Of a stretch of DNA of 64,000 nucleotides, positions 423 through 57,400 are shown piece after piece (the stretch's first letter is position 1; the number at the start of each line of letters is the position of its first letter). The notes under the pieces were generated by a model. That model searched no databases and was not told the DNA's origin. It was given only the letters and a program-made list of their open reading frames with translations. The stretch comes from Blasia pusilla. Taxonomy: Eukaryota. The DNA lies in the NCBI GenBank assembly GCA_050084515.1, contig CM114271.1, forward strand, positions 42,904,001-42,968,000. Reading direction: 5' to 3'. A program made the translations under genes and the position numbers.

Positions 423-574
423 ATAGGGTTAGGGTTGCTTGCACATACCCTATACAATTGAGAAGAGGACCAGCCTCCACTCATTCTCTCATTGCAAATT
501 TCGTTCTCCATGGTGGTGTGTGCGTGTGTGAGAGCCGTTTTCTACCAATTATGTTTGTTTAGCAATTTTCCACA
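423..574 (+). mobile_element. 3' part of a Copia LTR (same family as LTRs at 14992, 19974, 54478) inserted into the Gypsy RT
   Basis: Reverse complement of about 54478-54627 (TGTGGAAAACTGCTAAACAAGCATAATTGG...). It ends TTTTCCACA at 574, exactly where the Gypsy RT reading frame breaks. Confidence 0.85.
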
Positions 575-2480
575 AGAAGAGCATAGTAGTTCCTAACTAT
601 CACTTTATTCGGCACTCGATAATCAACACAGAGTGTCAAATTTCCATCTTTCTTCTTCACAAAGAGAACGGGCGCTCCATAAGGTGACTTGCTAGTTTGG
701 ATGTAACCTCTCTCTAGGAGTTCACCCAACTGTTTCTTCAACTCAACAAGTTCTTCTTGATTCAACCTATATGGCACCTTTGAAGGTGGTTGAGATCCGG
801 GTATCACCTCTCTCTTATGATCAACCGCCCTATGTGGTGGCAACTCAGTCGGAAGCTCCTTAGTCAAGACATCTCCAAATTCTTTCACAACTCTCTTGAG
901 TGTTTCAGGGATTCCCCTTGACGCTGAGTTCTGATCTTTGCATCTCGTGCTTGGATCATCCTCTACTTGTCTCATCAAGCAAAGTTATCCTTCCTCTAAC
1001 TTGGTCAAACTTGTCCTCGTGATGGCACTCAACAACTCCATTTTTCTAAGAACCTCACAAACCAATTTGACGTTCGTCCATTTTCCCTTAACCAAGACGC
1101 TTAACCTCAAAGGTCTTTGCCCCAGTTCCACCTCATACGCATCCAAGACTCCATCGCTTCCGTCCATGTCGCAAATTGTGAAATTCTCCTTCAACTCGAA
1201 TACTCCGCATCCCACACCTAGTCTTAAAACCAGCTTGAGGTCTGGTGGGAGTTGCCTCCCGCAAATCCTACCCTAATGGGTTCATCTGCCTTGGTGGTTG
1301 GCAATCCCAACGTCTTCACGATTCTCGGGCTTAAGAATGAGTGTGAAACACATGTATCAACGAGCAACATCACATTGTAATTACCGATCTTGGATCCTAG
1401 GTAAACCAAATTGGGCGTTCTCTTGGTGATTTGGAAAGATGTATCTAGGTCTTCCGCCGATAAGTGCTTAGTAGCAAATGCAATCATCCTCGGTTTACTA
1501 ACCTTGGGCCTCACACATTCCTTAGCCATATGCACATGTTCGCCATAATTGTAGCAAATCACTTTGGCGTTTGCTGACTTCGGGAACGCTGGACCTCTTG
1601 GCTTCGTGTTGAGTTCCACTCATATCGATGCTAGGGCAAGAGACCCTCCGTAGTCGCGCTCACCCCCATTCCAAACCCTCTTGTATGCCCCTTTGTTTTT
1701 TGGTAACTTAGAAAATATTTTCGGCTCAAAGGGTTTTTGGTTTTGGACTTCATCATCCCCTATCCGCTGTGCTAACCTCAGAAGCTCCGCGCACGTCTCT
1801 GGAATGTGAGGCATACGAAAGAGGGCCTTTTCGGCGCTCGATTAGAGTCCACTTAAGAAGATCAACTTCTTTGTAAACTCATCCATGGAAAGTGAGCTCA
1901 TTTATGCTTTGAACTCTTGCACATCAGCGCTAAGGGATCCGCTTTGGCGCAACCTCACAAACTCCATGCCATCGCGATACTCCTGATATTCTGGAGTGAA
2001 TCGGTTACCAATCAACCCCTTGAAATCTTCCCAACTCAAAGTTCTTCCACGGCCAAGATGTTCCTTACGGTGAGCCATCCACCACTGGAGAGCGTGATCC
2101 TTCAGAAACGTGACTGCTACAGTCACCTTGTCTAGCTCATCTGCCCTTTGCGCTTCGAAGTAAAGTTTGAGTTCCGTTAGAAACTCGCTCACTTTCTAAG
2201 AACGCCCCATTCCTATGAATGACGTTAGGAAATTTGTCTTACAAAACTTCTTGCTGGAACTAGAGGCTCCATTCGACTTGAGTTCTACAATCACCTTGCT
2301 CTGTTCGGCCATATGGTCCGCCATCACCTTCATCGAATCCATCGTCTGGATATAAAAGGCCGGGTCATTTGAGTTTGGAGATGAAGGCCCCGTGGAAAGA
2401 TTTGCATTTGGAACATCCTCATGTCTCGGACTCGGCACTTTGGGAGTCGCTATCTCTTCCTCTGGCTTATGGTCCATCAT
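575..2480 (-). pseudogene. Ty3/Gypsy gag-protease-RT, frameshifted and interrupted
   Basis: Retrotrans gag (FLKDHALQWW...SWEDFK...LRQSGS), decayed zinc knuckle (CYNYGEHVHMAKEC), protease (LLVDTCVSHSF) and RT start (LPPHRAVDH...[23 protein letters not shown]), split over several ORFs. Confidence 0.92.
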
Positions 2481-7720: not shown

Positions 7721-7853
7721 GTTTCTGAGTTTTCTTTGCTGCTGCTCTGCTAAGCCACACTCTTTATCCAACGAGCCAACGAGTTTTGACAGGTTTACAG
7801 ATTGTAGTCTAGATCAGTTTGGGCATTAGGTAGGTAGTTTTTGAGAAGTGCAC

Positions 7854-10078
7854 ATGGCCAAGAGACAGAAGACAATGACTGCGTTCCTAGGTAAGGAACG
7901 CACATATGATGGGCCTGACATTATCGCATTGTCTGGCTCATCTGATGAAGGAGACGAGCAGCCTCCATCGGGAAGCAGTGCAGCTATATCCGAAAAAGTT
8001 CGTGCAACATGGAAGGATGTTTGGTATTCAATGTTTGATTGGATTGATTTTGAACCAGTTCTTGGTAGAATATTTTGTAAAGTTTGTAGGAAGGGGAAGG
8101 GGAAGAGTGTCATTGCAAGAGATGGAGCAATTAATTGCAAGGTTTCAGCCTTCACTGACCATGCAAAGTCCAACGAGCACATTAAGCTTGCATGGGCTGC
8201 TAATGGGGGTAAGAAGTCGATGGCAAAGGCCATTTCCACAACCAACTGAACTTGCGAAGTCGCTTTGGTGACACTGTTTAAGTGCGCATACTTCCTTGCG
8301 AAGGAAGCTATGCCATTTCTGAAATTTCCCAATCTCTGTAAGTTGCTGATTTCTGTCAATGCTCCCATAACCAGAGACTTTTACCAAGATGAAAAGAGTT
8401 GTAGTGAAATGTCTTATTTTATTAGCCAAGTTTTGCATAGAAGAACTCTTGCTAGAGTTCAAGCCTCTCCTTTCTTTGGAATTATGATCAATGAATCAAC
8501 AGACATATCTGTAACAGGGCATTTGGTCGTCTTCGCCACTTTCATTGAAGAAGGGCAGGCACAATGTTGTTTTCTAGGACTACTTCGCTGTGAATCAAAA
8601 TGTTCTAATGCTATTACTGAAAGCTTGCTGCAACTAATCAAAGATGGAGGGTTGGAATTCTCCAAAATGATAGCATTTGGTTCAGATGGTGCATCAACAA
8701 TGGTAGGTAGCCAGACAAGGGTAGCCTCCCAAATGAGGCAGAAGGTAAACCCTTACATTCTTTCAGTTCATTGTGTAGCCCATAGAACGAATCTGGCTGC
8801 TTTGTCTGCTGCAAAAGCTCCTGATTGCAAGTTAATATCCTCCGAAGTTGATTCAATTCTCAATGCTATAGCTAGTTACTTTAGAAGGTCGTCCAAGAGG
8901 AAGACAATTCTAGCATCTTTGCAGGAAAAGTTCAATGACTCCCAACGAGTCATGAAGAGATACCACAAGATTCGATGGTTATCCCGGTGGCAAGCTGTGA
9001 CCACATTGTGTGATTCGTTAGAATCAGTACTGACATACTTTAGAGATATTCCTCCTTCAGAGGACGATGGGAATGCAGTGAATTTATTCAACAAGCTGAG
9101 ATCATTCCAAATGATCTATCAATTGTATTTTTTGGCTGATATTCTTTCCATGCTTGCAAATCTGAGTAAGATATTTCAGTGCAAGTTTGTGGATGTTAGC
9201 ACTATAGGGAGCATTTTCAATTCAGAGATAGCTAGGATTACCATGAATTTTGTCATGGAAACTCATGACTTGAATGTTTCAACCTTCTTTGAAGATACAG
9301 GTTACCATTTACTTCCTGACTTTGGGCCGCCTGGTGGTTATCTTCGTTGTTTACAGTCTGAGATTAGGGGAAACAAATTTCATAGTATAAATATGTCTCG
9401 GGATCGGACAGGAAAGGACTTGGAGGCTACCTTGTTCTTTCAGAAAAGGTTTTTGAAAGTGTGTGTGCAGCGTTACACGAACGATTTCGAGATAACAACC
9501 TCATTGGTTCAATGAGAATCCTCAATCCTCTACACATGCCTTCTAGGCAAGTGGGATTGAATAGTTGGAGATGTAAGGATTTAGATGACTTGTGTGGTTT
9601 TTTCGGAGCTCAATTGCCATTGCGGGGTAAGTTGCAACAAGCTGTCATTAATTCTCCGATTATTAAGCAAGAGTTTCAGTCTTTCAAATTGATGGCTACT
9701 ACTGAGTGGAAGGATCGAAATTTCAGAGACTTGTGGGCTATGGTAAGTTGGAGTCCCTCCTTGCAATGTAAGTTTTCCAATCTGCTGATTTTGGCAAATG
9801 TAGCTAGAGTCCAGTGTGTTAGTACTGCCATAAGTGAGAGGGCTTTTTCCATTCAAAATATGATAAAGACTGAATCTCGTAATAGGCTGACCACCAAGTA
9901 TTTGGATGCCGTCTTGAGGATTGCCTTAGAAGGACCTTCCTCTGATTCTGAGGAGATATTGTCTGAGTCTGTGGTACTGTGGAAGAATTCTGCTCATTTT
10001 AGGTATTTGTTTGCAAATCCAGATAGATATATCTCTCCGAGTGAAGAAGTGGAACCTACTGAAATCCCTGTAGATTAG
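7854..10078 (+). pseudogene. hAT transposase, ZNF862/DUF4371-like, with N-terminal TTF-type zinc finger and C-terminal hATC domain
   Basis: Motifs W..MFDWI...IFCKVC...H..S.EH; MINESTD (DESTD with D>N); GSDGA; HCVAHRTNLA; IRWLS; STAISERAFS.QN.IKT..RNRL. One in-frame TGA at 8247-8249 and one frameshift near 9450-9460. Confidence 0.92.
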
Positions 10079-27037: not shown

Positions 27038-29572
27038 ACTTAAAGTCCTCTTCAAGAGATATTGGGTTCTACTCTCCCCTTGGATAGTGGTGGGATATAT
27101 CCAATTCTCCCCTATGATAGTGGTGGTGCCTTGACTATTCATGTGTCTGGATAAATGAAATTCCAAACCTTCCAACAAAAAAAAAAAAACCAAATCTCCT
27201 TAGTGAGAACCCCAAACTGAAATCTAGATGTAAAGATGTATGTCGAGTGGGATGCCAATATCACATATGTGGAAGGGGTCCAATAAGCGAGATCAGCTTC
27301 TTATGGACATCTCACTTGAACCTACCAAAATCATTTTTTGACCTATGACTCTAAATGTCACAGTATTAACTTTATCACTTTTTTATCCGTATTCATTGTT
27401 TAACCTCATTTTTCCTTAGATTCATTGTCAAGATTTAATGTTTTATTGAATTTTACAGAGGATGTGCTTTACCAAATTTTCTAAGAAGGTAAGATATGTC
27501 CAAGACTACCTAGGCATAGTCATGATCTATGTAGAGATTTTGTGACCACATTAGTGTCATTTAATAGTGGTTTCAACAAGTTACAAGAGTTTTTGGAGTG
27601 TATCAAGTTAACAACCATATGGAGGATATGCATATGAAGGATAATCTTAAGGAGAGACATGGCATGTTGAGTGTCTCTTCTCGTGGCAGGAATGTATCAT
27701 CATTATCATGGGATATAAGCATCAATTTGTAAAGTGTAGACAAGCTTATGAGATAATTATGGAGTGATGCCTTTATTCTAAAGTAGAAGGAGTCATGTGA
27801 TGCTTGTGCTCATAGACTAGTGATATTATCAACATTAGATATAGGATCAATTATGTGGTGGTGTCTAGGGATGATGTATGAATGTTGTATCTCTTTGAAG
27901 GGATAAGCATGAATTTGGATGTAGTATTGCAAGAAGACTTGTTGTGCAATCTCACATCTCTATAGTATTGTAGAGAGAGATAAGATTGCACAACGAGTCT
28001 CATTTTGCCATATAATAATATTTGCGTAGTAGTAGTCTAAGTTGTTACTAGTATTACCAATATGTGGATACAAACATATATTAACCAAAGATACTTCATT
28101 ATTCGGAGCATAGGATTTGGATAATGTTTGCACCATTCACTTTAAAAAAATTGTATTGTCATTTCAAGATAGTTCCTTGGCTGATCCAAGGTTTGGTTTG
28201 CACAACCCAAGGGTAACCATATTTTGGAAGATGATACAAGTCTTAGGGCACTTTTAGGAGAGTCCAATTTATTCTCCATGACACTTGCTAAAAGTTAAAT
28301 ATGCATTTTGGAGAATGTATCGTTGTTAGATAGCATTCATGCACGAGTTACGAGGAGTATGCATCAAGTGGGATCCTAGTTTGGACCAATAGTGGTATTA
28401 GATATGATAAGCATTTGATCAAACATGCATTATCCATGATAGTAATATTGTGGATGACAAGCCTTATACCATACGTGACAAATGTTTAATTATCACAAGC
28501 AAGAACAACACACATCAAGTTTCCAATGCATACATTCTTAGATTGTGATTGTATCTATCTCTAGTTTGTCTTTCCATATTATAAGATTCCAAACACTTCT
28601 TTGTTTTGCTTGTCATAACTAGTAATAATGTTATCTATGCGACTAATATTTCACGACAAATTATAAGTAATAATAAAAAGTAAGACATAATTTAAATCCA
28701 CACCACAATTCGAAAAGATGCATATTTGTGAAAAGAGAACTGTACATGAAACATAAGTAAATTTAATTTATTTTCCAAACTTTTCTTCATAGTATCTTTA
28801 CGTTATCCGTATCTTCCATTCCGATAGTGAAGGTGCTGATCCAGTTTACTCGGAGGTCAGATGCGCGTTCGCATTGTGGGAGCATCTTGCCATACCTACG
28901 TAGCCCCGGGACAGCTGTATTACCTTGTGATGGGAACATGGCCGGGGGGCACCAGCGTGTACTCCTGTAGCAAAATCCTAGTACCGTACAACAGGGAAAC
29001 CAAACGTTGAGTAATCAAAGGTCGTTCCTGACTCTCCTGACGTTTCGGAGGCTTGGGCTCGCGCGCAGGAATAGGCACGCTGCGTGGGCGGCTTTGCTTG
29101 CTTTGAAGCGACCGAGCTTACATGCGCCCGGACGGACGATGGGATTTGGTGCGCAGCGTCGAGGAGAGATCGGGGGAGCACGAGAGGTGCCGTGAACAGT
29201 TGCTCGGGCTGCTTGGGGACAGGAAACGTGGACAGACCAGGCCTTTTCTGTACCTTTTTCCAGAGTATTCCATTATCCGGACGTGAATGGAGAGCCAGCA
29301 TCTTAAACTAACTCTGGACGATCCGGGGCGACGTGGGCATGTCTGCTAACTTTTGACTCAATAGCTTGGCAAACCTGCACAACACCGGGAATGCTTGGGA
29401 CTGCATTCCCTTTGAAAACCGCATTGTAACGAGCTCCTGCTTTGTGGGGGTAGCCATGGTACCCGAAAGCAATGTCCGGGGTTACGTGTTGAGCTAGCCG
29501 GAAGAATTTGACAATTTCTGATCTAGTTTCTCACGGTTCAGGTGGGTTTCCTTTGTTGTTGTTTATGTTTAG

Positions 29573-29943
29573 CCGGCTGGGATGAAAAGAAAATCGAAAA
29601 TCTCCGTTCGGTTTTACGCAGACCGGAAATGTACCGGTTGTCACGAAAAAACTCCCCGGACCTGCCCGAAAGATGCTGCTTTTGGCCGCAGCAAATCGGA
29701 TACAACCTGAAAGCTGGATCAAGGGCAGGCGACAATGCAGATTTATCAAAGTTGCGCCGGGTTCTTTCGGATGAGATAAAAATACTCCTGGCTTGGAGAG
29801 ATAATTACAAGTTGCTGTACATTGGATTAGGCGGATGCTGCCAAGATTGCAGAGCTTCTCCCGCAATCAGCCAAGTGAAAACTGTGCCCAAGTATGAAGG
29901 CTATTGGATCCCTGGCACACATCCCACTGCAGCTCCTATCTAG
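29573..29943 (+). CDS. Possible terminal exon of an unidentified small gene convergent with the RAD51AP1-like gene
   Basis: Open frame of about 120 codons after a pyrimidine-rich TTTAG acceptor (GWDEKKIENLRSVLRRPEMYRL...YEGYWIPGTHPTAAPI*). No family recognised and upstream exons unresolved. Confidence 0.3.
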
Positions 29944-30019
29944 ACCGAAAGCCCTGCCCAGGGAACAGCTAGGGAAAACAAGGTTTGATAACCTCGAGAC
30001 GTAATCCAGTACTTTGTAA

Positions 30020-33000
30020 TTAATTGCCTGTCAGATAAGGATGCAACGGAGGAGGTCTGCATCTTCTTGAGAGTCCTAAAACTCGGCGATGGAGTACGTT
30101 CGGTGCTACGAGTTGTAACGGAGCATCACCTGTAAGCCAAGGTGCAGCAAGTCAATGGCACAAACGTGGACACAGTTAATTATCAAAACGGGAAAGCGGC
30201 CTCCTTCAAGCGCGTATAACAAGAGTAACAAATAAGTAATTCACTTATGCAAAGAGTCCTTATGAGGGGCTTTCCAGAACGCAGAAAATCTTGGTGGTTG
30301 ATACGTCCACAAAGAAGAACGTAATGGACCAGACAAATATTCGACAAAGCAGACCTAATATCATGGCATCATGCGGAGTCCAACCGTGTGAGACTCGACC
30401 TGGAGATCTAGCAGAGAGGTTGTCTTGTGCGGCTTCCTTATTAGCCATCTTCATCCGCAACTTCGCTGGCTGCAGGTCTGCAGACGAAACTTGGAAAGTC
30501 GCACTATTAGCTAACGTTCATCACATTTTGTGCTCTTCTTCTAGACCTCACTCATACACGCTTATACGGCTTCAAACACCTTGTTAGATTGTGTGTTTGA
30601 AGGAAGGCACTGAACTTACTCGGAATGTTCGTGCGAGCTCCAAGGCCCCGGCTAGAGACCTTTGAGACCACTGTTTTGCGAAGAGCTTCGACACATTGGT
30701 TCTCTTTCGAGTTGAGCGTCTGGAAAAGCCAGCGCGCACCTAGTCAGGAATTACAGGACCTCTTGCAACAGAAAATAGAAAACCTTGGTGTGTAGAGAAA
30801 AGATGGACTGCGGGTTCTACAATTACTTACTACATCGACAGGTCATTGGGTAGGCCAGTCGTGAGTTGAAGATGACAATCTCCGTTACATAGCTTAAGTT
30901 GACGAGCTCGTGTATCATTTTTAGTTGAAAAAAAAACCATGGTCGAGCAACTGACTCCCACGAGGTACAAATATCTCACCGGTGGGTTAGGAGTCTTCCG
31001 TGATATAGCTCTTTGGTGTCCGATTGAAGTTGATCTCCTTTCAGATCCAGTACTTTTGGTCCTCGGTCCCTGCAGACATCGAATCAAGACTCACTACTAC
31101 AAAACAACCGACAAACTTTCTAGGAGTTCATCTTTACTTTAGAGAAGTGGCATCAGAAATCAATGAGGAGGTGATTCCCTCCCAATTCATTAACCTCCAA
31201 ACTTTCTCAAGACAGCTAAGAAGTAAAGGTGACTTCATTTGACATAAATACAAACGTCGCCTATTGGTCCGTGAATCTGTTTTGCTTCAACAAGCACCAG
31301 TAAGCCATTCCATATCTTATTGTTCAGGTAAGAACATGCTGAACGGGTTGTGAAGAAGAAAAAACGGTGGGTGGTTTTGAGGCAAACGAACAATACTTTT
31401 GTGACGGGAGCCAGAACAGTAGACCGTGACCGTTTCTTCGTTGCACTAATCGTACTAGCCCTCGCTTGGCGGCCTCGCTTCGTATCAGCCTCAGAACCGC
31501 TGGATTCCTCGCTACAGAAATCTGACTCATCGTCTGAGCTGTCGCCATTGACTACATCTTCCTGGAACCAATCCTCATCATCCTCACCATCCTTAGCGGG
31601 GCTTCCGAAGGAAGCTTTCACAGTGGTCTTCTGCAAGCGCAACAAATATCACGAAAGGAAGAATTTCATATTCAGGAACTGTGAGAACTTGGATAAAACT
31701 GCTGTATTGACGAGGACTCAGAGTGATTTCTGAAACTGAAATCAGTTTTGCTTCAACAAGCACCAGGAAGCCATTCCATATCTCATTGTTCGGTCATCTA
31801 TGGTGAAGACGACGATGAAAACCAAGTAAATACGAATCCAAATTAAACCAAATAACAAAGTGGGAAGCGTGAAAAGAGATTAGCACGAACTAATGAAGGG
31901 TAAAAAAAATACCCTACTCGGCATTGCTGTGAGCAGAAGGAGGGATTCACCTTTAAAGGCGTCCGAACATTCTTCTTACATTTGTTACCCTCTTTCATAT
32001 CAAGACTTTCCCCTTCCTCGTGCCGAGTATCACTCGGTCGATCTGGGAAACCTTCTACCTCTCGTCTTTGAGCACCTCCGGATATACTGCCCTCAAGCTC
32101 TGAAGGCTGGAACGCGTTCTCAACGTCTGAAGCTAAGGTGTGAGCCTGTTTCAAATCACTGTCTCATCAATTGACACCTTTGAAACAACTCCCCTGAATG
32201 ACAACCGCCCTACACCCAATGAGAATGAAATTTACTTTGTAGGGTTTGTGGATGAAACTACGAATTATGCAGAAGAGTGCTCCTGTACGAGCAATAAGAT
32301 GTGATGAAATAAAATGAATCGTTTGACAATCTACCTGTCGGCCTTCCTCCATTTCCTTAATGGTCCCAGTATTGTCGATCGGAACCAAGCAAAAGCTATC
32401 CTGAATATCCTCCGCCATTGGCTTCGAATTGCTCACATCGAAAGCCACATCCAGCAACCTTTGGAAGGCGCCTCCAGCATCGTGAGAGGGCAATTTTTCA
32501 TCTTCTGAATCGGAGACTTCGACGCGATCGACGCGGCTTAGATTTGGAGCATTGCAGATTCCACCGTTGCGAGGAAGTTCGGGCGGCAAGACGGCATTGT
32601 GAAGAGACTCCTTCAGAGCTCTTTCCAGCTCCCTTGCTTCTGCCCGCTCCTGAGGTGACCAACCCCGTCTTAAGCATGTCATCAGAAACTCAGGAGTAGT
32701 TTTCGGTAATGTGCACAAGGTCAATGCAGGGAGGAAATTTCTATGCACGTGACATCAGTCGGTAGCTGCAAAATTTAGATGCTCGATCCGAAAATCAAGA
32801 ATCAAGCAGCATTATGGGCACTACACATCGACAGGGTTTATCTTATACTGTTTAGACATAAGGAGCACAATCAGCAAACGGGGGTCGTTGCAAATTGACC
32901 CCGCCTTCAACAAGATGTAATTTTAAATATCAGAGCTCAAATTCCCTGTGGCAGGCAATGAGGGGGCCGCGAAAGTTCTAACCTTAGGATTTGCCCGCTC

Positions 33001-33875
33001 CTGCATCAAGTAGATCACAAGCAGACCACACGACAGGAGATTTAAGATTTTGAAGATAACAAAAATGCTTTTGAAGAGTAAACCCATTACTATCCTCACT
33101 TGACGAATGATTTTTGGGAGCCAATCTGGAATTAACGAAAACCAATATTATTGTTCGTTATATTTGCTTCTATGAGATTGTGCCAAGTGGGACCATTCCA
33201 GAAAAGTTCTTTCCAGGACAAGGACCTCATCTTATCCTGGAATGTTGCAAACCAACAGAAATTTAGACAAGGCCCACCGTTGGCGAGCGCCAAATCAGGT
33301 TCGATTGTGTGAGTCCAATGCTCGTTGTCAAAACTGACTGATTTCAGACGAGATTGTTGATCACCAGGGCAGTAGTCGTAGATTGGCCTAGCTATCATCA
33401 TTTGCATATGAACCCAAGGGCCGTAAAGTCACAGCGTGAGCGAACCCGGGAGAACCGCAGAGGAACAAGACTTACGACTGTCCTATCTTGGCATTCCACG
33501 GAGGACGAAGAACTGGATTTGGAAACAAATGAGCTAAAAGATATAGAACCCCCACGCGAGGAAAAAGATGAGAGGATTACGTTAGAACAAATGGAGGGAA
33601 TACGGACGGTAGCTCAATACTCTACAGCGCCGAACCTCAGACTAGAACAATAAAATAAAATGCCCACTTCTCCGTACCTGTGTTCTGCTCTTCTTCAACG
33701 CCAAATTCTTGCGTCCCTTTAAGGCGCCTGTTGTGTCTACTCTATCCTTACTCCTGTCATCCAATGCATCAGCCCGTTCGCTCAAATGTCCCGCAAAACA
33801 CAAATCCTCGTCATCAGAAGAATCCACCTTGTAAGAAACATTCGCCCTTGTTTGTCTCGTTCTGGAAGCGCCCAT
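30020..33875 (-). CDS. Intact-looking 8-exon gene; low-complexity charged protein with C-terminal RAD51-interacting-like motif (RAD51AP1-like), 454 aa
   Basis: Exons 33875-33678, 32649-32335, 32145-31951, 31630-31397, 31069-30980, 30719-30620, 30477-30355 and 30129-30020. All are GT-AG and phase-compatible, totalling 1365 nt with no internal stop. Motifs: RANVSYKVDSSDDED, ELERALKESL, DDESDFCSEE and terminal RRVLGLSRRCRPPPLHPYL. The exon 3 acceptor and exon 7 donor are the least certain. Confidence 0.8.
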
Positions 33876-34502
33876 ACCTCAATCTTTCCACCAACCGTCT
33901 CACTCTCGACCCGGCACCGCCGTCTCAATCCTCACATATGCCAGGTAGCCCGCCGGCACACGAAATCAATCCACCTCCGACTCCAACTCCAGCACCATAG
34001 CATCACTCCACTGCGCTCGCAAAATGCAACGGTATCGCGTACTCCAGCTGTGGATAGCCACCATCGCCGCTAACTATCGCGCGCCATCGGAGAAGACGCT
34101 GGAGAATTCATATGCACGAACAGGGAAACATCCTCAGCGCACGCATGGAAATGTAAGGAATCTCGGAGGGAGACAAGTGTTAAGGCTCGGAACTCTGAAT
34201 CCATTCAAACGCGGGGCTCTCCAACCAGAGAGAGTGCCGTGTGTGAATTGGCGCGCCTAAAGCACCAAATCAAAACTGGGCACGCAGTCTCTTGCACCGT
34301 CGGATTTCTGACTGTACTCCTATTGCGAGAGCGGCTTGATTGAGGGATATTTCTTTGAACGGGTGAATCTATATTATTAGGATTAATTGTTTGGGAAAAA
34401 AATGTTTGTTCATAGAATGGAAAAAACAAAATTACTAGAATAAGAATGGAAAAGATTTGTTTATGATAAGTAGAGAGGAGTTCGCAAATAAAGAAGAGAC
34501 TT

Positions 34503-48799: not shown

Positions 48800-51700
48800 C
48801 CCCCTTCTGTCGCCAAAGAAATATCAAGCCTGGTATAGACCATTGCCCACATCAAACTACCTGCTACACTTTTATAAGGTATCTTTCTCATGAACCTTCT
48901 TTCTTCTTCATTCCTGGGGGAATCCTTTCTTGAGAGCTTCTTCCATGATTCTACTAGTGTATCTATAGGTTTTTAGTCAGACATTTTAAACCTTGCAAGT
49001 ACACTATTTACACACCTACTTTGAGATAGTCTTATCCATCCCTCCTTTCTGTTCCTAGTTACTTCCATTTGAAGGAAATGATGGATTTCTCCCATATCTG
49101 TCATTTCGAACTCCTTTTTCATTGAGTCTTTGACGGATACTAGCAGTGGTATATAATTTATAATCAATACAACATCATCTACATATAGGGATTGAACAAA
49201 ACATTCATGATCATTCAGGATGTACACATTTGTATCATTATCAAATCTCCGAAATCCTACTTTGATCATTTAACTATCCATCATTTGATACCAGAATCTT
49301 GATGATTGTTTAAGTCCATAAATGGACTTATACAACCTACAAACTTAATCTTGGCAAGTAGGATTTCACACCCCCTCTGGTATCTCCATGGATACTTCCT
49401 CCTCAAGTATACCATTCAGAAATGTTGTCTTTACATCCATTTGATGTACTTCAAGATCAAACTATGTTGCCAGAGTAAGCATAACTCGGATTGAAGTTGT
49501 TTCGACTATAGGTGAGAATGTTTCAATGTAGTCCACACCATAAACTTGTGAGTAGCCTTTTGCTACTAATCTTGCTTTATACCTTTCAATGCTCCCGTCT
49601 GCTTTGTACTTGATTTTGAAAACCCGTTTGCATCCCACGGCCTTTCTACCTTGTGGAAGTAAAGTGAATGACCAACTGTTATTCAACCTCATGGATTCAA
49701 GCTCTTGTTCCATTGCATCCTTCCAATGAAATTCTTGCTGCCCAAATAGAGCTTCTTCATAGGTCTCGGGTTCTTCAATATTGATATGCTTCTCTTGTTG
49801 ACTCAATAACGCAAGAGTCAATTTCTCCGTATGTGGATTCCTTGCGTGTGATTCCTGATGGGTTGCATCATATTTTTGCACTTGCCTTGAAACTCTTTTA
49901 GATCTTCTTGGTCCAACACTTACTTCGCTTGGAGTTTTGTTGTTGGACTCTATTTGAAAAATTTGTGGCTCATTTTGAACTTGTTCTAGTGCAACATCAA
50001 GAATACGGCTCTCTATTGGAATCTCACTAGCACTCTTACTAGTACTTGGAGTGCTCATACCTAGTGTTAGTGCACCTTTTCCTTGAGTGGTAGTCGATGT
50101 TGGAGTTGGTAAGGCTCCCACTAAACTCATTCCCCAAGACTCAAACAAGGAATCTTCATCCTCCTCTTCACCCAAAACAAAAATGCCACTTTTCCCTCTT
50201 GGAATTTTACATCCCTAGAGGTGAAGATGGTTTTGCCAAATTTCTTTTGCAACTTGTATCCTTTTCTTTGCTCATTGTAACCAGGAAGAATACATTCTTT
50301 TGATTTTACGTATAGTTTTCTCCTCTGAGAATAATGAATTAGTGCAAAAGCTGTACACCAAAAAATTCTAAGGTGACTGATCTAGAGGCTCTATGTACCA
50401 AACCTCATGTGGTGTCTTATCATGCTCCAAAGCCTTTGTTGGCGATCTATTTTGCAAGTAGTTTGCTGTCACTATTGATTAATCCCAATAAGCCTTTTTG
50501 AGACCTGATTTCTTCTACATTGCAAGTACATTAGATGTTAAAGTTTTATTTTTTTATTTTTGACTCTCCGTTTTTTGTGGAGTGTAAGGGATTGAAAATT
50601 TCCTTCTAATGCCATGCTCTTGACAATATAAATTGAAATCAATGGAAGTGTATTCTTCTCCATTGTCACATCTTTACATCTTGTTTTTTCTTCCTATCTT
50701 ATTCTCTACTAAGTTTTTGTACAGTGCAAACTTTTGATATACTTTTGATTTCTGCTTCAAAAGATATACATATGTATATCTTGACAAATCATATATAAAA
50801 GTCAATAAATATCTAGCTCCATTGAATGTAAATGTGCTTATTGGTCCACAAACATTATAATGAACTAAGCTGAGAACATCTTCAGCTCTTTTACCATCTG
50901 TCCGAAATTTCTCCCATACTTGCTTGGACTTGATGCATGTGGTACAAAGAGGAAAGTTGTCAAAGTCTACTTCCTTCACCAAAATCTATTTTTTAAGTGC
51001 TACGAGTCTCGCTGGGCTGATGTGGCCAAGCCTCTCAGGTCACAAAACAACATTAGTTGTTGTAGAGAGAGCAATGATCTCCTTGCACATGGAATTTCTG
51101 GTTGATTGCTTAGGTGTTATGGAGTCAGCTAGTATATAGAAATTGTTCATAGACTTGCAATTTGCTATTGTTACTCTAACTTTGTTGTTCAGGATACAAC
51201 GAAGATTCTTGGTTGTCAAATGTCCTCCTACTTGATCAAATTGATCCACTAAGAACAAATTCTTCCTGAGACTAGGGACATACAACACATCTGGGATGAC
51301 AGTTTTTACTCCATTCAGTAGCTTGATGCTTACTAACCCTATTCCTTGACTAGGCTGGGCTGTTTCATCTCCCAAATACACCACCGATTGTTGATCTGGA
51401 TTACTATATCGAAAAGTGGTTATAATAAATATGTTGAGAGGTCGTTAGCCATGTGCTGAGTGGCTCCTGTATCTACATACCAAGATGTATCTAGACTACT
51501 TGAGGTAGTCAAGGCTATTACATAGAGTTTAGTCCCAACATCATTACTCTGATTTAGCTTCTACAATCTCTTAGGAAAATTCTTCAATATGTGTCCTAAT
51601 TGCTTACAATAGAAACAACGAATTGATGTGATCGGAAGCTTCTTCCTGTAGCTTCCTCTTTCTTGATTGAATCTTTGATTATCACCTGTATATAGTATTG

Positions 51701-54477: not shown

Positions 54478-57400
54478 TGTGGAAAACTGCTAAACAAGCA
54501 TAATTGGTGGAAAATGGTTCACACACACATACACCACCATGGAGAACGAAATTTGTAATGAGAGAATGAGTTGAGGTTGGTCTCCTTCTCAATTATATAG
54601 GGTATGTACAAGCAACCCTAACCCTAACCTTAACCATAGTCTCAAGTTAGACTAATTGTAATTAACTAACCCTAGTTAAGATAATCGTGCTTAAGTGACT
54701 AACCAAGATTAAGTTTCCCTACTTTGTATGAGTACCAAATATAGCAGTTCATGTGTCTTATGAGCTTGACTATAACTCAATCTTCGATATTCTCCCTCAA
54801 GCTCATATCAATATCTCTAACGCCTAAATCATTTCTAAACATCTCTAACTTATCTCTAGACAATGCCTTTATAAAAATATCAACAATTTTTTTATCTGTA
54901 TATATATACACAAGATCAATTTTCCCTGCAAACACTTTCTCTCTGATAAAATGATAATGCACCTCAACATGCTTTGTACGAGCATGAAACACAGGGTTAT
55001 TAGCAAGCTTGATGCTACTAGTATTGTCTCCATATATTACACTAGGGCCTAAGTTACTAACACCAATCTCAACAAATAATCGATGAAGCCACACCGCCTC
55101 ACATGCTGCATTGGTTGCTCCTCTATACTCACCCTCTGTTGAAGATAAAGCAACTAAAGGTTGCTTCTTTGAAGCCCAACTTATATCTGCGCTTCCCAAA
55201 GTAAATGAATAACCAGATGTGGAGTGTCAATCAGACACGCTTCTTGCCCAATCAGCATCTATGAATCCATGTAATTGAAAATTTGGAGAATGTTCAAATT
55301 GAAGCCCGAATTGAATAGAGAATTTTACATACCGCATAATCCTCCTCACAACATCAAGGTGAGGTTTTGAGGTGCTTGCATTAACTGTCTCACTAGGCCA
55401 ACACCATAACTTAAATCTGGTGTGGTTATAGTTAGATAGATCAAATTTCCAACCATGCGGCTATACATATTAGAATCTGCAAGCAAGTCTCCTTCATCCA
55501 CTCTTAGCTTCACACTCTGGTCGAACAGTGTAGAGATTGACTTAAAAGCCGTCATACCATATTTTGAAAGTATATGAACAGCATATTGTCGTTGTAGTAA
55601 CCACATGCTCTCTCCAACCTTCATAAACTCTATACAAAGGAAATACTTGAGTTCTCCCAAGTCTTTCATATCAAATTCTGCTTGTAACTTAAGCTTGACT
55701 TGTTGTACCATTTCTTCAGTACTCCCAATAATCATGAGATCGTCAACATACAACACAATGAGAACCGTATGATCTTGTCCTCTCAAGACATATAACAAGG
55801 AGTCAGAATCACATACCCTAAAACCCAACTCTTGTAGGACGTATGTAATCTTACCATACCAAACTCGTAGAGCTTGTTTGATCCCGTAGAGAGCTTTCTT
55901 CAACCTGCATACACGAAATAGAAACTTGGGATGCTCGTATCCAGGCGGTTGAGTCATATATACCTCCTCGTATAAATCTCCATTTAAGAAGGCATTTTTA
56001 CGTCTATGTGATGTAATCTCAATTTCTTACTTACTCCAACTACAACCATTGTTCTCGTAGTTGCCATCTTTGCAACAGGGCTAAATGTTTCCTCATAATC
56101 GATACCATATTGTTGTGCATAGCCCTTAGCCACCAATCTCGCTTTGTATCTGTTAATTGTACCATCTTGATTGCGTTTGATTTTTTAAATCCATTTGCAA
56201 CCAATAGCTTCCTTACCAAAAGGTATATCAACCAGCTCCCATGTCTATTCATGTTTTAATGCAGCAAGCTCTTCCTCCATAGCTTCAATCTATTTGACTT
56301 CCTTACAGCTTCTTCAAAATAACTCGGCTCCTGTTCTTAAAGGGTAGTCATCATATATGCATGATGTGTCGCAAGGGAACCTTCATTTATGAATCCATGA
56401 ACTGGATGTCTAACTCTACTTGATCTACAAAGTTGTTGTTCATAGATAGATGCCTATAACACCTAACTTAAGCTTAGACTAGTGTCAACAGATTGAATAC
56501 GTACTCTTTCCGTCCATGGACTCATAGATCTAACTGATGAATCTAGGACCTCTCCTAATACTGCACTAGTACTTAGGGAAGTTGAAGACAATGTCCGTTG
56601 GGGTACAGTCATATTCTCCCCCTCAACAGACAAGTTTAGAGGTGGAATAGGCTTAGACGGAACACACCAAAGCTTTAGCTCATCAAAGACAACATCTTGA
56701 CTAATAATAAGCTGCCTAAAGGATAGAATGTAGTACTTATAGCACTTATATCTCTTAGTTCCATCAGCATAGCCAATGAAGATATATCTTTAAAATTTGG
56801 GGTCTAATTTCTTACGTCTCTCAAAAGAAACATGAGCATAACAAATACAGCCAAATATTTTCAAGAAGGAAAAATTTGGTGTACTTCCTATGAAGATTTT
56901 GAATGGAGTTTATATCATGAACTCCTACTGTTGGAGTTTGGTTGATTAAGAAGACTACACATGCTACAGCCTCTGCCCAATACATCTTAGGCATGTTCTT
57001 CTCATTCAGCATAGCTCATGCCGCTTCAGCAATATGTCAATTTTTTCTCTCAACCACTCCATTTTTTTGTGGAATGTAACGGCAATTCACTTGACGTTGG
57101 ATGCCATTCTGATGTTAATTATCATCAAACTCTGTTGAAATATACTCTCCTCCTCCATCACAACGCAATTTCAGAATGTGTCCTCAAGTCTGCTTCTCTA
57201 CTATAACTCTGAATGTTTGGAACATTGAGAATACCTCTGACTTGGCTTTTAGAATGTATACCCATATATACCTAGAGAGGTCATCAACAAATGAAACAAA
57301 GTACTGGCAACCACTAAGGTTATATTGTGATGGTAGGAACTATGGATCAACTCCAATATCCAGGATGCTCTTCTACCTTGCTTTGGAAAATGAAATCTAA

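Follow-up and report, generated by a model that had tools for sequence, protein, structure and literature searches.

The stretch of DNA shown above raises the question of whether land plants possess a counterpart of RAD51AP1, a RAD51-binding protein that reviews call vertebrate-specific (PMC3401455, PMC12535699). This stretch, referred to below as the window, comprises 64,000 nucleotides of Blasia pusilla contig CM114271.1 (positions 42,904,001 to 42,968,000). On its minus strand, between positions 33875 and 30020, lies a gene that an earlier, sequence-only reading had taken for a divergent RAD51/DMC1 accessory factor, its C-terminus resembling that of human RAD51AP1. No report of a plant RAD51AP1 counterpart was found in the full-text literature, subscription journals and supplements lying outside this scope. 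The data presented here suggest that the gene probably encodes a plant RAD51AP1-type factor, which would bind RAD51 through a C-terminal module.

RNA evidence for positions 29500-34500 is provided by two transcript-contig runs (X1 and X2) and two raw stranded RNA sequencing runs (X8 and X9), all under the same species label. Joining the RNA-defined exons gives a minus-strand gene of nine exons, with 1335 nucleotides and 445 codons, running from an ATG at 33875 to a TAA stop at 30022-30020, the sole stop of the frame. In X8 and X9, read depth tracks the exons and is zero or near zero across most introns. With the usual stranded chemistry, first mates on the plus strand correspond to RNA from the minus strand. 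Here, the first mates lie almost exclusively on the plus strand, and the transcript therefore comes from the minus strand. The eight introns all begin with GT and end with AG, which appears as CT..AC in plus-strand letters, and for seven of them clean joints are observed in the stranded reads of two runs, in two contigs or in both. The locus is a real, expressed nine-exon gene. The sequence-only reading had rightly described a GT-AG spliced, stop-free gene between these end points, and its charged, low-complexity product agrees with the composition and charge blocks described below. Its gene model has to be corrected: eight exons and 454 amino acids become nine and 445, an 18-nucleotide micro-exon (33000-32983) sits between the first two exons that it had made adjacent, and the RNA moves the start of exon 7 to 30719 and the borders of exon 8 to 30477-30400.

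The resemblance to RAD51AP1 is carried by exon 9 (30020..30129, minus strand), which encodes the last 35 codons and the stop at 30020-30022. After a split glycine codon (G), this exon reads DAPLQLVAPNVLHRRVLGLSRRCRPPPLHPYLTGN, exactly as the sequence-only reading had quoted it. Its splicing to the upstream exons, which that reading assumed, is observed directly: the joint 30129/30400, which removes intron 8 (30130-30399), is found in 20 reads of X8, 8 reads of X9 and both the X1 and X2 contigs. Thus, as judged from 28 reads and two contigs, the whole RAD51AP1-type tail is encoded by one short last exon and the split codon. The human RAD51AP1 and RAD51AP2 genes also have the whole motif in one short last exon (PMC1636435).

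Is this tail conserved in other plants? A word-based search with the 43-residue open reading frame around the last exon retrieved proteins from Riccia sorocarpa and Marchantia paleacea and six unnamed transcript-derived proteins. The RNA-defined protein aligns over its full length with the R. sorocarpa and M. paleacea proteins (phmmer E ~1e-45; 33-34% identity by blastp). The alignment is collinear, exons 7 and 8 included, so that the RNA-derived frame is independently confirmed and chance is no explanation for it. A profile of eight proteins, run against all 1,835,955,588 representatives, gave 14 matches at E <= 0.001, the named ones belonging to Cryptomeria japonica, Welwitschia mirabilis, Psilotum nudum, Adiantum capillus-veneris (two), Adiantum nelumboides and Ceratopteris richardii. 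Marchantia polymorpha and Riccia fluitans were added by a search with the full-length profile A1, in which the best 8000 candidates by shared words were scored. All family members that bear a name are filed as 'hypothetical' or 'uncharacterized', with no precomputed Pfam domain, in line with the earlier claim that no plant counterpart is annotated. On these alignments, the locus is a bryophyte member of a previously unnamed land-plant family present in liverworts, ferns and gymnosperms. The nearest full-length relatives are those of liverworts, with only about a third identity, and several blocks are closer to ferns than to Marchantia or Riccia, from which the gene would be placed in a bryophyte belonging to neither genus. 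Proteins with an intact tail have 235-445 amino acids, and the two shortest may be partial. Two fragments, P0014 (185 amino acids, no tail) and P0019 (190 amino acids, a 30-residue match), were excluded from the Pfam scan and from the alignments. Among the named matches at E <= 0.001, there is no angiosperm, moss, lycophyte or alga, several matches being unnamed, and an absence from flowering plants can be put forward as a hypothesis.

The alignment of 12 intact tails defines a conserved C-terminal module, HRRVLGLSRRCRPPPLHPYL (30032..30091, minus strand, computed coordinates). These last 20 residues of the conserved tail are near-invariant across liverworts, ferns and gymnosperms, with columns R, G, L, S, R, R, P, P, L, H, P, Y and L identical in 12 of the 12 sequences, and they form the only strongly conserved element of the family. 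The expectation that homologues would retain GLSR and PLHP is therefore borne out, the core being invariant in all 12 plant C-termini. In the window protein, PLHP ends 5 residues ahead of the stop.

Comparison with the human protein gives a meaning to these positions. Human RAD51AP1 has three RAD51 sites, Site-N (WVPP), Site-M and Site-C, which are documented by a cryo-electron microscopy structure of 2025 (PMC12704761). Site-M corresponds to 332-LRLGLSR-338, in which L334 and L336 are buried in RAD51, and L345 and H346 of Site-C lie in a surface groove of RAD51 (PMC12704761). Residues R316, L319, L328 and H329 were found critical in yeast two-hybrid assays (PMC1636435). Since L336 is L319 of the older numbering (PMC12704761), these four residues are R333, L336, L345 and H346, and the mutants L319Q, L328A and H329A concern L336, L345 and H346, respectively. 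Ungapped alignment to the human peptide in PDB entry 9qnc_B defines a Site-M-like VLGLSR (30065-30082, minus strand) and a Site-C-like PLHP (30038-30049, minus strand) in the plant tail. For the first, the window has R-V-L-G-L-S-R, with no variation of G, L, S and R among the 12 tails and with L, I or V at the L334 position. For the second, P-L-H-P is invariant in 12 of 12 and its spacing to Site-M is that of the human protein, six residues separating the LGLSR and LHP elements in both cases. The equivalents of L336, L345 and H346 are identical in the window and are found in every one of the 12 plant tails.

Database searches point to the same protein. Pfam family PF15696 (RAD51_interact), a model of 39 positions with a gathering threshold of 25 bits, describes the C-terminal motif of RAD51AP1 and RAD51AP2. 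Among 24,736 models, the last exon matches this one alone (E 3.3e-4, 21.2 bits, positions 24-39 of 39). The Pfam scan proposed with the sequence-only reading thus returned the expected family and no other, at a score under its threshold. PF15696 is also the best match in 17 of 18 homologues (8 of 8 and 9 of 10 in the two sets), at 13.6-23.9 bits, the sole miss being Marchantia polymorpha, whose model is without the C-terminus. A search of 177,635 distinct PDB sequences with the last exon gave a single match, the 41-residue human RAD51AP1 fragment 9qnc_B, with the ungapped alignment of vlglsrrcrppplhpylt over RLGLSRLARVKPLHPNAT. Moreover, in a language-model feature search with the fern protein P0015, three chordate RAD51AP1 clusters (297-347 amino acids) rank first to third among named clusters, with scores of 0.86, 0.85 and 0.85 and 174, 170 and 169 shared features; in this search, scores below 0.9 count as leads only. 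The same search over all clusters with the M. paleacea protein was uninformative, its best score (0.84) going to unnamed arthropod clusters with low recognition. Candidates of another kind were rejected. P0015 matched PDB entries only by acidic stretches of cytochrome bc1 subunit 6 (E 3.3), and the matches of exon 1 to adrenodoxin and an eIF-1A family protein (E 1.1-1.7) are taken as chance.

Several observations weigh against a RAD51AP1-type assignment. The Pfam threshold is reached neither by the window (21.2 bits) nor by the homologues (13.6-23.9 bits), the cut-off being 25 bits, and the E-value of 0.34 of the 9qnc_B match is non-significant alone. The R333 (R316) position is occupied by V in the window, and by V in 11 and I in one of the 12 plant tails; an invariant R stands directly before this column. 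Profiles made from the 12 plant tails (A3) or from full-length plant proteins (A1) retrieve nothing from the PDB at E <= 10, the human peptide included, and in the exhaustive profile search no match at E <= 0.001 could be named as an animal RAD51AP1. In addition, the WVPP Site-N, a DMC1-binding motif located upstream of the tail in the human protein (PMC11229353, PMC12704761), has no equivalent in the window protein, where no aromatic-x-P-P occurs anywhere; among 15 family sequences, one has such a motif upstream of the tail, the FSPP near the N-terminus of the Welwitschia protein. Finally, the exons of the window differ from the RNA runs at seven positions, five of them non-synonymous, which indicates weak constraint on most of the protein.

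The motifs cited by the sequence-only reading in the same order as in human RAD51AP1 can be reconsidered in this light. Four of the five are present in the mRNA: RTRQTRANVSYKVDSS..DDED and LKKSRT in exon 1, ELERALKESL in exon 3 and DDESDFCSEE in exon 5. The fifth, RSP...WTP, loses its second half, since WTP (within RVSHGWTPHD) belongs to intron 8 and is absent from the mRNA, exon 8 stopping right after ...SARSP. Hence, of the proposal of a RAD51/DMC1 accessory factor, the likeness of the tail is retained, whereas the DMC1-type motif, being intronic, and the exact gene model are not.

The same tail could also result from motif sharing without orthology. In this case, an independent disordered plant protein would have acquired the same RAD51-binding linear motif by convergence or by exon transfer; RAD51 would still be bound, and the other activities need not match those of RAD51AP1. 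Such a view accounts for the fact that detectable similarity to animal proteins is limited to 16-37 positions of the 39-position Pfam model, at the extreme C-terminus, for the failure of any profile search to link the plant family to animal proteins (PDB at E <= 10; representatives at E <= 0.001) and for the missing Site-N of the window protein. It also has a precedent, as RAD51AP1 and RAD51AP2 are described as sharing this region alone, with a similar stretch at residues 96-111 of RAD54 (PMC1636435). However, the protein agrees with RAD51AP1 in size, in the way its charges are laid out and in having the motif in a short last exon, and the whole-protein features of P0015 are nearest to chordate RAD51AP1 clusters, a lead only. 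Motif sharing without orthology is considered unlikely, although it is the main alternative, and common descent with RAD51AP1, rather than motif sharing alone, is given slightly less than an even chance.

It is less probable still that the tail serves a role unrelated to RAD51, for instance as a nuclear-import, degradation or other docking signal, the likeness to RAD51AP1 being fortuitous. The similarity statistics are indeed all sub-threshold (Pfam below 25 bits, PDB E 0.34), and the plant-invariant residues reach beyond the animal core, with H-R-R before it, Y-L after it and extra prolines, which could mean another partner. Against a fortuitous likeness, RAD51_interact had been named before the scan and came out as the only Pfam match of the last exon, RAD51AP1 is likewise the only PDB match, and the conserved positions are the human RAD51-contact residues at identical spacing. 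A further idea is that the region, set among many transposons, is transcribed but decaying or non-coding and yields no functional protein. It could invoke the abundant transposon remnants of the window, the eight upstream ATGs of the 5' untranslated region, the presence of intron 2 in part of the transcripts and the non-synonymous character of five of the seven exonic variants. Nevertheless, the spliced frame stays open over 1335 nucleotides, its splice sites are canonical and used, homologues as distant as those of ferns and gymnosperms align collinearly with it, and the tail does not vary, which makes decay extremely improbable.

Returning to a RAD51AP1-type factor, contact residues at fixed spacing, a module at the extreme C-terminus and flanking basic segments are found together; therefore, the mechanism of human RAD51AP1 is the best supported one. 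By analogy with the human structure (PMC12704761), the Site-C-like PLHP would dock on the surface of a RAD51 protomer and serve as a recruitment anchor. The Site-M-like V-L-G-L-S-R would insert at the protomer interface, beside the RAD51 N-terminal domain, and stabilise the filament, and the flanking basic segments would hold DNA, thereby favouring strand invasion. From this analogy, we infer that the plant protein binds RAD51 and DNA and takes part in homologous recombination. Lacking Site-N, it may be deprived of the nucleation and DMC1-specific functions.

Comparison with known systems helps to place the plant family. The plant proteins share with RAD51AP1 (PIR51) a similar size, a disordered and charged make-up, the arrangement of LGLSR, six residues and LHP at the extreme C-terminus, identical equivalents of L336, L345 and H346 and a short last exon encoding the module; RAD51AP1 is their best Pfam and PDB match and, as a lead only, the nearest protein in language-model features for the fern member. 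They differ from it by a match under the Pfam threshold, by the missing WVPP Site-N, by V or I at the R333 position and by additional invariant residues in the tail (HRR..., RP.P, ...YL). RAD51AP2, a vertebrate, meiosis-specific protein of the same Pfam family, has this C-terminal RAD51-interacting motif too, again in a short last exon, and RAD51AP1 and RAD51AP2 are reported to have solely this C-terminal region in common; residues 96-111 of RAD54 resemble it (PMC1636435). With 1159 amino acids, however, RAD51AP2 is far from the 235-445 of the plant proteins, and the feature search pointed to RAD51AP1 clusters. NUCKS1 is not known to carry a RAD51-binding tail, which in the plant family is the one firmly conserved element. 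This vertebrate paralogue of RAD51AP1 is a charged, disordered chromatin protein, for which extensive homology to RAD51AP1 has been claimed (PMC4787752); the words 'plant', 'invertebrate', 'ortholog' and 'phylogen' are absent from the text of that source.

The fern tails add a further resemblance. FxPP recombinase-binding motifs occur in BRCA2 and FIGNL1 (PMC11229353), and Site-C of RAD51AP1 uses the same RAD51 site as BRCA2 TR2 (PMC12704761). In the ferns P0013, P0015, P0017, P0018, P0020 and P0021, an F[RK]PP is embedded in the tail as GLSRR-F[RK]PP-PLHP, and the unnamed P0016 has YRPP at this place, so that F/Y-[RK]-P-P is found inside the tail of 7 of 15 family sequences. In sequence, fern tails and this unnamed member thus resemble the P-motifs of BRCA2 (PhePP/TR2), FIGNL1 and RAD51AP1 (Site-N). 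By contrast, the position has no aromatic residue in the window (C-R-P-P, as in liverworts) or in gymnosperms (V-R-P-[APV]).

What is new here is a plant branch of candidate RAD51AP1-type RAD51 binders, which lies under the Pfam threshold, has no Site-N and would, on balance, be expected to bind RAD51. If this is true, the plant recombination toolkit gains a missing accessory factor, the origin of RAD51AP1, or at least of its RAD51-binding motif, moves far back in eukaryote evolution, and it has to be asked why named matches come only from non-flowering lineages. As a tentative extension, it can be imagined that RAD51AP1 is an ancient eukaryotic modulator of RAD51 filaments rather than a vertebrate invention, surviving in liverworts, ferns and gymnosperms, with a plant form made of Site-M and Site-C only and an FxPP fused into the fern tails. 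Under this proposal, the plant family would have been overlooked because of its fast evolution outside a 20-residue tail, its just-sub-threshold Pfam score and mis-modelling in the model liverwort, and because it is apparently missing or unrecognisable in flowering plants, the main subjects of plant recombination studies. A factor that stabilises RAD51 filaments would also be relevant to plant gene targeting. The genetically tractable Marchantia polymorpha offers a system for direct testing, with the reservation that its model MPTK1_1g21120 is without the motif-bearing end. Indeed, the M. polymorpha MPTK1_1g21120 (P0009) and R. fluitans R1flu_020592 (P0010) models are without GLSRR..PLHPYL and leave the family alignment just before or inside the tail, the former ending in unrelated residues and the latter entering a repetitive stretch after HRR. 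Their last exons are probably mis-modelled; in the case of the model liverwort, this would conceal the motif.

Upstream of the tail, the gene can be followed exon by exon on the minus strand, together with the conserved blocks of the family. Exon 1 (33678..33875, 66 codons) encodes a basic N-terminus, RTRQTRANVSYK, the acidic run DSSDDED and KGRKNLALKKSRT. The first family block consists of such a basic N-terminus, then V-S-Y-K and an acidic/serine run. Intron 1 (33001-33677), whose joint 33001..33677 bounds exon 1, is supported by the X1 contig, 7 reads of X8 and 2 of X9. Exon 2 (32983..33000) is the 18-nucleotide micro-exon encoding ERANPK, defined by joints 32999->33677 and 32655->33677, the latter with 11 letters between; the X2 contig and 4 reads of X9 carry it between exons 1 and 3. 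The second block of the family accordingly combines R-x-L-A-L-K-K-x-R-x-Q, the micro-exon, which reads ERANAK or ERENAK in the aligned fern homologues, and ERAEA..L.RA..ESL. The evidence for intron 2 (32650-32982) is indirect only, coming from records in which exons 1, 2 and 3 are continuous. This intron is also covered by an X1 contig (32622-33001) with a depth of 26.5, vs 85.9 for the spliced contig, and by reads of X8 and X9, coverage of 33277-33680, a part of intron 1, being noted alongside. Some X8 reads pass the joint between exons 1 and 2 and then continue into intron 2. Retention of intron 2 would stop the frame about 20 codons past the micro-exon; its coverage may reflect regulated unproductive splicing or simply pre-mRNA.

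Exon 3 (32335..32649, 105 codons, from RNA joints and alignment) contains ELERALKESL (32602-32631), the hydrophobic-plus-acidic stretch VDRVEVSDSEDE (32497-32532) and an AFQRLLDVAFD block. The third block of the family is made of this hydrophobic-plus-acidic stretch (RVEVSDSEDE in the window, IDVFDSEDE in the gymnosperm-like sequences), followed by A-F-Q-x-L-[LV]-D. On inspection and with simple patterns, ELERALKESL fits the hydrophobic-x-x-A-x-x-x-S pattern of ubiquitin-interacting motifs, an element that the window shares with ferns and that is degenerate in Marchantia and Riccia. Against this assignment, exon 3 matches no Pfam model at E <= 10. In the same way, RVEVSDSEDE was read as SUMO-interaction-like; a strict SUMO-interacting motif pattern has no match in the window and was matched solely by an unnamed gymnosperm-like sequence. 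A search with exon 3 among longer proteins gave 665 candidates, none of them at E <= 0.001. Intron 3 (32146-32334; X1 and X2 contigs, 3 reads of X8, 12 of X9) leads to exon 4 (31951..32145, 65 codons; joints 32144->32334 and 31630->31951), which is acidic and weakly conserved. After intron 4 (31631-31950; both contigs, 13 reads of X8, 10 of X9), exon 5 (31397..31630, 78 codons, from RNA joints) encodes an acidic patch, DGEDDEDWF...DDESDFCSEE (31505-31591), then a basic run, KRGRQAR...KKRSRS. The fourth family block has the same layout, its acidic patch containing D-W and S-D-F and a basic run coming next, and the tail is the fifth.

Intron 5 (31070-31396; both contigs, 6 reads of X8, 20 of X9) precedes exon 6 (30980..31069, 30 codons; joints 31068->31396 and 30719->30980), which is basic and Ser/Thr-rich. 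Intron 6 (30720-30979) is found in both contigs, 17 reads of X8 and 9 of X9. Exon 7 (30620..30719, 100 nucleotides) is fixed by this joint (30719->30980; 17 and 9 reads, both contigs) and by 30477->30620 (13 and 9 reads). Its acceptor and frame differ from those of the long open reading frame starting at 30739, and its frame is backed by collinearity with the Riccia and Marchantia proteins (IPNLQPAKLRMKMANKEAA). A Pfam search with exons 7 and 8 as first delimited (30620-30739 and 30356-30469) gave no match; the RNA shows other borders and frames. Intron 7 (30478-30619) is present in both contigs, 13 reads of X8 and 9 of X9. Exon 8 (30400..30477, 78 nucleotides) ends with ...NLSARSP and the first base of the split Gly codon, its joint appearing as 30127->30398 (cut shifted by +2; 20 and 8 reads, both contigs).

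Residues S, R, A, E, D and K abound in the product; W makes up 0.2% of it, Y 0.4%, and F and I 2% each. Judged by this composition, the 445-residue protein is largely disordered, and it is presumably nuclear. By blocks of 25 residues, the charge is basic at residues 51-75, acidic in the middle, down to -9 at 251-275, and basic in the C-terminal third, from +3 to +7 from residue 301, before the tail. The seven positions at which the RNA runs depart from the exons of the window are 30703, 31012, 31587, 32417, 32539, 33717 and 33724. Five of the differences change an amino acid (E356G, R340G, G257A, M150K and A51V), two are silent and none is in the tail.

The untranslated regions extend the transcript on both sides of the frame. 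The 5' untranslated region (33876..34157, minus strand) is reached by the X1 contig up to 34157 and by the X2 contig up to 34140; it holds eight upstream ATGs, with upstream open reading frames of 1-32 codons. The 3' untranslated region (29632..30019, minus strand) is delimited by contig ends at 29632 (X1) and 29754 (X2). Just past its mapped end, about 43 bases (29620-29662) collect many RNA reads on both strands, whose flanks differ from the window, with 37-85 reads per loose end. This segment looks like a short repeat common to many transcripts.

The neighbourhood of the gene within the window is rich in transposons, with remnants at 559-1619 (minus strand), 7845-10078 (plus strand), and 49462-50214 and 55346-56026 (minus strand). 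The open reading frames at 559-1619 resemble fragments of retroelement pol by eye, the one at 559-984 having no Pfam match at E <= 0.001. A hAT-type transposase remnant matches Dimer_Tnp_hAT with 24.1 bits, above the cut-off, and DUF4371 with 21 bits, below it, and open reading frames of copia-type reverse transcriptases match RVT_2 with E-values of 7e-42 and 2e-16.

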